A stretch of DNA of 64,000 nucleotides from Escherichia coli (lineage in GTDB: Bacteria; Pseudomonadota; Gammaproteobacteria; Enterobacterales; Enterobacteriaceae), in the NCBI RefSeq assembly GCF_002854065.1, contig NZ_CP024147.1. One strand, given 5' to 3'. Made by a program: the position numbers and the translations under genes. The notes beneath the pieces were generated by a model, which saw only the letters and a list, made by a program, of their open reading frames with translations, was not told the origin of the DNA and made no database searches. This document shows positions 24,975-26,444 of the stretch, piece by piece (positions within the stretch are counted from its first letter, which is position 1; every line of letters starts with the position of its first letter).

Positions 24975-26444
24975 ATGACAATTTCAAATTCGAATTTATT
25001 AAAACCGTTTATTACTGGTTCTAAGTTGCTACCTTTTAAGGATGATGTCTTTTCTAAAACAGAAGAACAATTTAAAAAAAGCCCCCATGGCAAATCGCTT
25101 TTCATTTCCGGAAATGAAAACTTAGTAAACATTTCAGCGGAAAAAATCGATGAAATAAAAAATAGCAAAAATTTCTTTTCAAACATTGTAAATATAATAA
25201 TTTTACTCATTAAGCATCCTGATAAAATTCTGCCTATTCTTCATGGTTGTCCTGCAGAGTCCATCGAATTCATTAAGAATGCGAAACGAACGGGGCAATG
25301 GTCATATGAGATGACTGATAAGTACGGGCAGAGTATTGAAGTGTCCTATATTTTCACTGATACCATAGATAATAAATCTGATGGAAAATTATGCTTAAAA
25401 ATCTGTAACTCCTGCAACCAAAATGATTCTAGTACACATGAATATAAAATAGAACATCAACAGTTGAAAAATCACATAAAGCAACTTGAGGAGTGGGCTC
25501 TTCTTGAAAAGTTTTATGATAACAACGCTTATTATTCTAAACGTACAAAACAATTAGAGAAGAAAATTACCGATGCGGGGTTTATAACAGGGAAGGTTAA
25601 TGTCGAGAAGTTTAATGTAAAAGAGTTTAAAGACGATATAACCTCGATGCTTTGTGAACAGCCGCCCCTGCGTACACACCAGATTTCTTCATCCGGATAC
25701 GTATCTGCAGATAAACTGCCCAAACTCTATGAGTTAAATTTGAAAGACGCGCAGAGAGATCTTAAAACAACACCGGTTGACATCGATGGTGTCAGTTTAA
25801 AATTTAAAACTCGGGAAAGAATTGCAGAAGAAATTGCGAAAAAAACTGCGGAAAAAACTGCGAAAAAAAATTCGGAAATAATTGCGAAACAAAATGCGAA
25901 TAGCATTGAGGAGAAGAATATTGAAAAAAACAACAAAGAAACAAATCCTGAAGATAATTTTGTCTTAAAATTCTCACAGGAAGAAATCAATGAGATGCTC
26001 CTGGATTACAGCGACGAAGAACAAAAAAAATTAAGACCTTTTTTCACTAGTGATCACATCTATTGTTTGTTCGATGCTTTTAGTCAGTGTTTGTATAATG
26101 TTGCTCGTGATGGCAGTCCACGGTATGCAGGTTTACTACAACAAATAGCATCCAAGTGTGCGATATTACAAGATTTTGATCAACAATTGTTCTGGCGCAC
26201 GTTTTCAGGAGGAGTCTTCCATCGACGTATCTCTGTGAACAGCGAGCCAGAAAAGACAGATGTATGGCGATTCAGTACACAATTTGATTTTCCACATATA
26301 AATGACAACGGAGAGTTGTCCAGAACGGTACTCATGTTCGAGGGGGTTGCTGAAAGCAACTTTAAAGATATCGCCAATCATTCCAGCGAATGTTTTTCTT
26401 ACAGTTGTTATGCCGCTCCGCTGGATGTGAATGCTAAAAAATAG
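24975..26444 (+). CDS. hypothetical protein, 489 aa, AT-rich accessory gene (candidate secreted effector/toxin-like protein)
   Basis: Long ORF with GGAG RBS inserted between malZ and acpH; visibly AT-rich codon usage; Ser/Asn-rich N-terminus MTISNSNLLKPFITGSK; K/E-rich low-complexity repeat IAEEIAKKTAEKTAKKNSEIIAKQNA. Confidence 0.7.
   Translation: MTISNSNLLKPFITGSKLLPFKDDVFSKTEEQFKKSPHGKSLFISGNENLVNISAEKIDEIKNSKNFFSNIVNIIILLIKHPDKILPILHGCPAESIEFIKNAKRTGQWSYEMTDKYGQSIEVSYIFTDTIDNKSDGKLCLKICNSCNQNDSSTHEYKIEHQQLKNHIKQLEEWALLEKFYDNNAYYSKRTKQLEKKITDAGFITGKVNVEKFNVKEFKDDITSMLCEQPPLRTHQISSSGYVSADKLPKLYELNLKDAQRDLKTTPVDIDGVSLKFKTRERIAEEIAKKTAEKTAKKNSEIIAKQNANSIEEKNIEKNNKETNPEDNFVLKFSQEEINEMLLDYSDEEQKKLRPFFTSDHIYCLFDAFSQCLYNVARDGSPRYAGLLQQIASKCAILQDFDQQLFWRTFSGGVFHRRISVNSEPEKTDVWRFSTQFDFPHINDNGELSRTVLMFEGVAESNFKDIANHSSECFSYSCYAAPLDVNAKK

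Follow-up and report, generated by a model that had tools for sequence, protein, structure and literature searches.

Poly-A runs and an in-frame 12-bp repeat array in an orphan gene of Escherichia coli: probably lysine coding and generic slippage rather than phase variation

We analyzed a stretch of 64,000 nucleotides from Escherichia coli (contig NZ_CP024147.1 of assembly GCF_002854065.1), called the window below, with regard to a 489-aa open reading frame (ORF) that is situated between malZ and acpH and carries A-runs of 7 or 8 nt as well as a short imperfect repeat (Table 1). An original prediction, made from the letters of the sequence alone, had described the runs as slippage-prone tracts that could switch the gene off, a possible mechanism of phase variation. 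We found that the runs are best explained as a passive consequence of Lys-Lys pairs coded by AAA AAA. They would be generic slippage hotspots with no programmed reversible switch, located in a horizontally acquired, AT-rich orphan gene restricted to Escherichia, and the repeat would be a separate in-frame array with a variable number of tandem repeats (VNTR). To this explanation as a whole we assign a probability of about 0.8.

The three runs named in the original prediction (25074, 25863 and 26023; each run is referred to here by its first position) are located exactly where they had been placed. Two further A7 runs, 25839 and 25924, had not been listed. The ORF, which makes up 2.3% of the window, therefore holds 5 of the 17 homopolymers of at least 7 nt found in the window. 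The number of A-runs of at least 7 nt that one should expect varied with what was kept constant in the shuffling. With the bases of the ORF shuffled, 0.8 runs were expected compared to 5 observed (P=0.0015), and with the order of codons shuffled the expectation was 1.8 (P=0.02). When the protein was kept fixed and the gene's own synonymous codons were permuted, 3.6 runs were expected (P=0.23). Thus, the A-runs are not over-represented once the protein and the codon usage are fixed.

The composition, observed directly, agrees with this result. All five runs are in Lys contexts, either AAA-AAA (Lys-Lys) or xAA-AAA-AAx (Glu/Gln-Lys-Asn/Lys), 40 of the 53 Lys codons of the ORF are AAA, and the GC content of the ORF is 35.7%. 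The A-runs are present because a Lys-rich protein is encoded in AT-rich DNA, and the alternative that the original prediction had itself offered, Lys-rich low-complexity coding in AT-rich DNA, is supported.

We compared the tract lengths across isolates at the level of assembled genomes. From the ranked carriers of the ORF we drew two samples at even spacing, each with 59 genomes (queries with the coding sequence (CDS) only, near-full-length rows), and a third set had n=29. Twenty-one alleles were aligned, including every out-of-frame allele found in the samples. The population counts come from the two 59-genome samples and from the exact-match counts for four variant sequences (95-bp queries), which see a variant only on an identical flanking haplotype.

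The 25074 tract had the same length in 20 of the 21 aligned alleles, and its A6 variant was matched exactly in 1 of 1126 genomes, that of strain ESDR8. The same strain was the only one among 1070 genomes with the A7 variant of the 26023 tract. The change from A8 to A7 at 25863 was seen in one assembly only among the 21 aligned alleles; the repeat unit bearing this run is missing from the 1446- and 1458-bp alleles. For the A7 run 25839 we observed no 1-bp length change in the aligned alleles where its repeat unit could be aligned. Within the O157:H7/O55:H7 allele class (311 genomes with at least 99% identity), 15 of 17 evenly sampled members were 100.0% identical over 1446 bp. The comparison of tract lengths across isolates, which had been proposed as a check of the phase-variation idea, therefore revealed near-invariance: each of the three tracts named originally was changed in one assembly, always by -1. 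For these three tracts this is essentially the outcome that had been named in advance as speaking against the idea.

Frameshifted alleles, about 5-7% of those sampled, made up 4/59, 3/59 and 3/29 of the three samples, and all ten of them carry the label "frameshifted" in the annotation by the Prokaryotic Genome Annotation Pipeline (PGAP). In the eight alleles with 1-bp indels, each indel was located inside a homopolymer of at least 5 nt, though such homopolymers span only 6.6% of the CDS. Runs of A, C, G and T were all affected (Table 1); the C5 variant at 25662 with O157-type flanks was found in exactly one genome. Slippage would be the mutational mechanism of these tract changes. In E. coli, indel rates are known to climb exponentially with the run length (PMC8510543). 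We also observed that the singleton indels in the A, C and T runs were all -1 and occurred on backgrounds separated by 0 to 3 substitutions from intact alleles. Such a pattern is the usual signature of under-calling of homopolymers in long reads, and read errors may lie behind the single -1 changes in the three tracts named originally.

The only frameshift common to several genomes was the change from A7 to A8 at 25924, with 26 exact A8 matches, mostly in O145:H28. These 26 genomes stem from several laboratories, years and accession series. An allele identical in 26 genomes of different origin indicates that at least this event is real and inherited, and its fixation in a lineage is a direct observation. 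A single genome with the O145-type allele was found to have A7 at 25924, namely RM12275-C1 (L026, O145; 398-1867), where the 489-aa ORF is intact and the CDS is otherwise equal to the A8 alleles. Its A7 is either ancestral or the result of a reversion or of a miscall. The A8 of O145:H28 is a case of lineage pseudogenization, not of switching. Hence, the earlier suggestion that indels in the runs could truncate the gene holds, for example for the +1 change at 25924, and is not supported as far as a switch was meant.

The repeat ctgcg(a/g)aaaaaa of the original prediction was confirmed and belongs to a longer array, for which Tandem Repeats Finder reported a period of 12 in 25831-25900 (5.8 copies, 77% matches, score 77) and a period of 24 in 25816-25898 (3.5 copies, 81% matches, score 103). 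In frame, the array reads IAEE-IAKK-TAEK-TAKK-NSEI-IAKQ, followed by weaker units. We observed directly that the copy number differs between strains, by 12, 24 and 48 bp, and because of this variation the array is beyond chance. In the first 59-genome sample the in-frame CDS had a length of 1446 bp in 27 genomes, 1458 bp in 17, 1470 bp in 10 and 1386 bp in one, with four lengths that were not a multiple of 3. The second sample had 28, 19 and 7 genomes with CDS of 1446, 1458 and 1470 bp, one each with 1422 and 1386 bp, and three with a length that was not a multiple of 3. The CDS of 1422, 1446, 1458 and 1470 bp are all intact ORFs, and the protein database holds lengths of 473, 481, 485, 489 and 493 aa, in 4-aa steps.

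At least four distinct indel boundaries were seen in the array among the aligned alleles. For example, the alleles L007 and L011 are one 12-bp unit apart with 0 substitutions, at a site distinct from the other deletions, which indicates that the VNTR changes are recent and recurrent. The array thus has all the properties of an in-frame coding VNTR: tandem copies, a unit that is a multiple of 3 and keeps the frame, and a recurrent change of copy number. It is a true in-frame VNTR. Since the unit is a multiple of 3, the array cannot switch the reading frame; a unit that alters the frame is present, trivially, in the mononucleotide runs and not in the array. In a model that AlphaFold2 built from an alignment of 14 alleles (mean predicted local distance difference test (pLDDT) score 40, predicted template modeling (pTM) score 0.30), residues 277-311 make one long helix with a block pLDDT of 58-76. 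Going by this model, the array is probably a charged, alpha-helical spacer of variable length between two conserved protein blocks.

Two unusual alleles were also seen. In PE164 (L020, 301-1817) the array is expanded and more degenerate, with 11-nt units, and the CDS of 1517 bp is out of frame within the array itself and annotated as frameshifted. A divergent allele of 461 aa with 80% identity, seen in THO-010 (L021, 301-1686) and also in H149, retains conserved N- and C-terminal blocks but carries a shorter segment of unrelated sequence in place of the entire repeat/linker.

Table 1. Features of the malZ-acpH junction in the window (positions are those of the window; indels are given with the strains in which they were found).
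Feature	Position	Strand	Basis or remark
Single-gene AT-rich islet	24788..26461	.	BLASTN vs the K-12 MG1655 malZ-acpH junction
Compound hairpin just 3' of the malZ stop	24821..24868	+	RNA fold -31.4 kcal/mol, z=-6.4
GGAG Shine-Dalgarno-like motif	24964..24967	+	7 nt 5' of ATG, read from the sequence
489-aa orphan ORF	24975..26444	+	ORF list and translation; ECs0454 of O157:H7 Sakai
A7 run	25074..25080	+	Lys34-Lys35, TTT AAA AAA AGC; +/-1 would give a 47- or 49-aa product; -1 in ESDR8
C-run	25662..25668	+	CCGCCCC (interrupted) in the window, C6 in most other alleles; -1 (C5) in FDAARGOS_1268 (L006) and O157:H7 LSU61 (L016)
Degenerate 12-bp (4-aa) tandem array	25816..25900	+	Tandem Repeats Finder
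A7 run in the array	25839..25845	+	Lys289-Lys290
A8 run in the array	25863..25870	+	Lys297-Lys298-Asn; +/-1 would give a 309- or 301-aa product; -1 (A7) in GPEC1446 (L014)
A7 run	25924..25930	+	Glu-Lys-Asn; A8 would give a 325-aa truncated product; +1 (A8) in O145 RM8843-C1, 95-3192, RM11626-C1, ESDR8
A8 run	26023..26030	+	Gln-Lys-Lys; +/-1 would give a 358- or 352-aa product; -1 in ESDR8
T6 run	26039..26044	+	-1 (T5) in O157:H7 17B6-2 (L017), otherwise equal to the O157 reference allele
G5 run	26342..26346	+	Expanded, with nearby substitutions, in GF4-3 (L012), annotated as frameshifted

Under the explanation that we favor, the A-runs, like any homopolymer, would be hotspots of replication slippage. 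Changes of +/-1 would occur at a low rate in the A-runs, and equally in the C, G and T runs, and would truncate the protein; some of the truncating changes would reach fixation in one lineage and leave a pseudogene there, of which O145:H28 is an example. Units of 12 bp (4 residues) would be gained or lost by slipped-strand mispairing or by unequal recombination, so that the helical spacer would be lengthened or shortened without breaking the frame.

The A-runs could, on the other hand, have been selected as hypermutable tracts which reversibly switch the gene at high frequency, as in the simple sequence repeat (SSR) contingency loci of Neisseria, Haemophilus, Campylobacter and Helicobacter. 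We consider this very improbable. The ORF does resemble such loci in having intragenic homopolymers whose slippage by +/-1 truncates the product. Homopolymer indels truncate the gene in natural isolates, one natural lineage (O145:H28) carries such an OFF allele, O145 holds A8 (26 genomes) and A7 (one genome) on identical backgrounds, and the 25074 tract is close to the 5' end, the place where switching would have the greatest effect. However, mismatch repair is intact in E. coli, whose phase variation classically works via invertases and Dam methylation, not via SSRs. We saw no evidence of reversibility, and the alterations were not confined to A-runs, as generic slippage predicts. Almost all genomes have the same tract lengths, the tracts named originally vary only in single assemblies, and the runs are no more numerous than codon expectation (3.6 expected vs 5 observed, P=0.23). 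ON and OFF states were not intermixed among close isolates; the O157/O55:H7 class is essentially monomorphic (15 of 17 identical), and O145 is split 26 to 1. Finally, the tracts of 7-8 nt, with A8 as the longest, are much shorter than the minima used in calling SSR phase variation, i.e., G of at least 9 and T of at least 11 (in our test, T/A of at least 11), and even G7 is described as too slow to let phase variation work efficiently (PMC5953494). Phase variation, therefore, was not borne out, given the short tracts, their lack of enrichment beyond Lys codons, the near-invariant lengths and the monomorphic O157 class.

Several points nevertheless weigh against the explanation by Lys coding. 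The one A7 against about 26 A8 within O145 could be a reversion, hinting at two-way switching. The frequency of frameshifts among the carriers, 5-10%, may be above the average for an E. coli gene. The evidence comes from assemblies, so heterogeneity within populations may exist, and the ON and OFF states of the protein may be under selection. The helical spacer was derived from a model of low confidence, both overall and over the repeat. In a further reading, the protein of the ECs0454 family would be a fast-evolving factor of host or phage interaction (e.g., an unrecognized secreted effector) with a helical spacer tuned by the VNTR and with a low-rate toggling of homopolymers that is selected for, a kind of "proto-contingency" locus in an enterobacterium. 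The gene would then be OFF in O145:H28, RM12275-C1 would be a genuine revertant and the host would be proficient in mismatch repair. We regard this combination as quite improbable.

The remaining alternatives concern the reality of the indels and the function of the gene. All the 1-bp tract differences could be artefacts of sequencing or assembly, i.e., homopolymer miscalls in long reads. The singleton indels, all of them -1 on identical or nearly identical alleles, fit this idea, as do the two extra A-run deletions within one gene in ESDR8 and the origin of LSU61 and 17B6-2 from neighboring accession series. The shared A8 allele does not, with its 26 identical copies from different laboratories, years and accession series. 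In addition, all 37 genes neighboring the ORF in ESDR8 are intact, which argues that this assembly is not grossly error-prone. We thus see very little chance that artefacts account for every difference. It is still less credible that a truncated isoform of about 301-309 aa is programmed by slippage of transcription, or by -1 ribosomal frameshifting, at A-rich heptamers (e.g., A AAA AAT in 25863-25870). Slippery-type sequences are present in frame, and the shifted frames run into a stop shortly afterwards, which gives lengths of 301-358 aa. For transcriptional slippage to be efficient in E. coli, however, runs of about 9 or more are needed, no stimulatory structure or SD-like element upstream was noted (no search aimed at one was made), the nearest stems resembling intrinsic terminators were reported on the opposite strand, and the unit with the 25863 run is not conserved, being missing from the alleles found most often, those of 1446 and 1458 bp.

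The ORF could also be a non-functional remnant, with the repeat polymorphism and the frameshifts as signs of neutral decay, which we consider unlikely. Among the in-frame alleles dN/dS was 0.6-0.77, a value that indicates weak constraint or selection and that would also suit decay. The orphan status, the lack of a confident fold, the 5-10% of disrupted copies and one large deletion point in the same direction. Against decay, dN/dS is still below 1, the ATG is preceded by a canonical GGAG, the changes in the VNTR are nearly all multiples of 12 bp, and about 93% of the carriers retain the 1.4-kb open frame at 36% GC, where stops arise easily. Slippage in runs that result from Lys coding, accompanied by an in-frame VNTR, remains the explanation that we prefer.

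Besides the contingency loci, three kinds of known systems can be compared with the ORF. In-frame coding VNTRs (regions used in multiple-locus VNTR analysis (MLVA), spacer or stalk repeats of surface or secreted proteins) likewise have units that are multiples of 3 and keep the frame, a copy number that varies between and within close lineages, and a low-complexity spacer between conserved blocks. The units of the ORF differ in their small size (12 bp), their degeneracy (about 77-81% matches) and their low number (about 2-7), and the protein has neither a signal peptide nor a known family. Lineage-specific pseudogenes made by homopolymer frameshifts are familiar from accessory genes of E. coli and Shigella; the +1 in O145:H28, the sporadic disruptions and one deletion follow this ordinary pattern, and nothing notable differs. 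Glu/Lys-rich single alpha-helices and coiled-coil spacers would share with the array the 4-residue periodicity of Ala/Glu/Lys, the helix predicted for 277-311 and length changes in roughly one-turn steps. Unlike the classical E4K4 pattern, the array has Ile/Thr/Ala at fixed positions, and its helix is predicted with low confidence.

The description of the gene as 489 aa long and accessory was accurate. The ORF was found in 1127 of 5426 complete E. coli genomes, single-copy and chromosomal, in lineages that include O157:H7, O145 as well as extraintestinal pathogenic E. coli (ExPEC). It is annotated as "hypothetical protein" in all records examined. Searches with the protein gave no significant match in Pfam or NCBIfam, no match in PADLOC, only non-significant PHROG matches (E of at least 0.02), and no relative among PDB sequences by profile search. 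When 1.84 billion representative proteins were searched exhaustively with phmmer, one full-length cluster and fragments came up, all of the protein's own family. Every named match to the family is from Escherichia or Shigella, with no homolog detected outside these genera. A literature search on ECs0454 and the malZ/acpH context found nothing relevant on the locus.

Several candidate functions were considered. For a protein of anti-phage defense or of a phage family, the PADLOC and PHROG results gave no support. For a type III secretion effector there was neither a Pfam/NCBIfam effector match nor similarity to the nearby EspY3-like ORF described below, and a relationship to that ORF was rejected. 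As a lead only, the first 22 residues are rich in Ser/Thr/Asn and free of acidic residues. Another lead only is an invariant Cys-x3-Cys-x2-Cys motif (CLKICNSC; C140, C144 and C147, window 25392-25415). The CX3CX2C spacing is typical of radical SAM enzymes, yet no Radical_SAM match in Pfam/NCBIfam was found even at E of at most 1, and this candidate was rejected.

The ORF is the single gene of an islet without mobility genes. The identities of the surrounding genes were taken from the RefSeq annotation of near-identical loci: malZ (22970-24787) precedes the islet, and the convergent acpH (26465-27046, minus strand) is followed by queA, tgt, yajC and secD. In K-12 MG1655 the 1,674 bp of the islet correspond to 1 base; the point of insertion falls precisely between the stop codons of the convergent genes malZ and acpH, and the K-12 junction aligns to 24555-24787 and 26462-26728 of the window. 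The GC content is 0.42 in the block 24001-26000, compared to about 0.51-0.54 in the flanks. The GGAG motif may function as a Shine-Dalgarno sequence, judging by its letters; a simple sigma-70 scan found no plus-strand promoter upstream of the ORF. In USDA5905 (L013, O55:H7; 1094-2834) most of the ORF is lost to a deletion, which joins malZ, truncated at its 3' end, to the final 334 bp of the ORF.

The hairpin downstream of malZ is possibly a terminator-type element of this gene or an element of the repetitive extragenic palindromic (REP) type; it was missed by a simple terminator scan, which requires a T-run. In the allele alignment the A-run of its loop (24843-24848) is A5, A6 or A7 depending on the strain, and this intergenic homopolymer is therefore more variable than the coding ones.

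Elsewhere in the window, lower GC content (0.45-0.48) was observed in the blocks 4001-10000 and 50001-52000, which may be further accessory insertions. A 531-aa ORF at 39271-40866 (minus strand), situated in a low-GC patch, has weak similarity to pentapeptide-repeat effectors (PipB2/PipB). In strain ESDR8 the gene at the matching relative position bears the annotation of the type III secretion system (T3SS) effector EspY3.

The mechanistic importance of these results is small. What they add is an in-frame VNTR of an ordinary kind and a homopolymer pseudogene specific to one lineage. The 12-bp VNTR, with at least five length classes and present in about one fifth of E. coli genomes, could be of minor use as a marker for typing, and the A8 frameshift marks most O145:H28 genomes. 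The singleton -1 "frameshifts" of the ORF in long-read assemblies are probably artefacts that inflate the counts of pseudogenes. More generally, population evidence is needed before A7-A8 runs in accessory, AT-rich genes of E. coli are taken for switches of phase variation.

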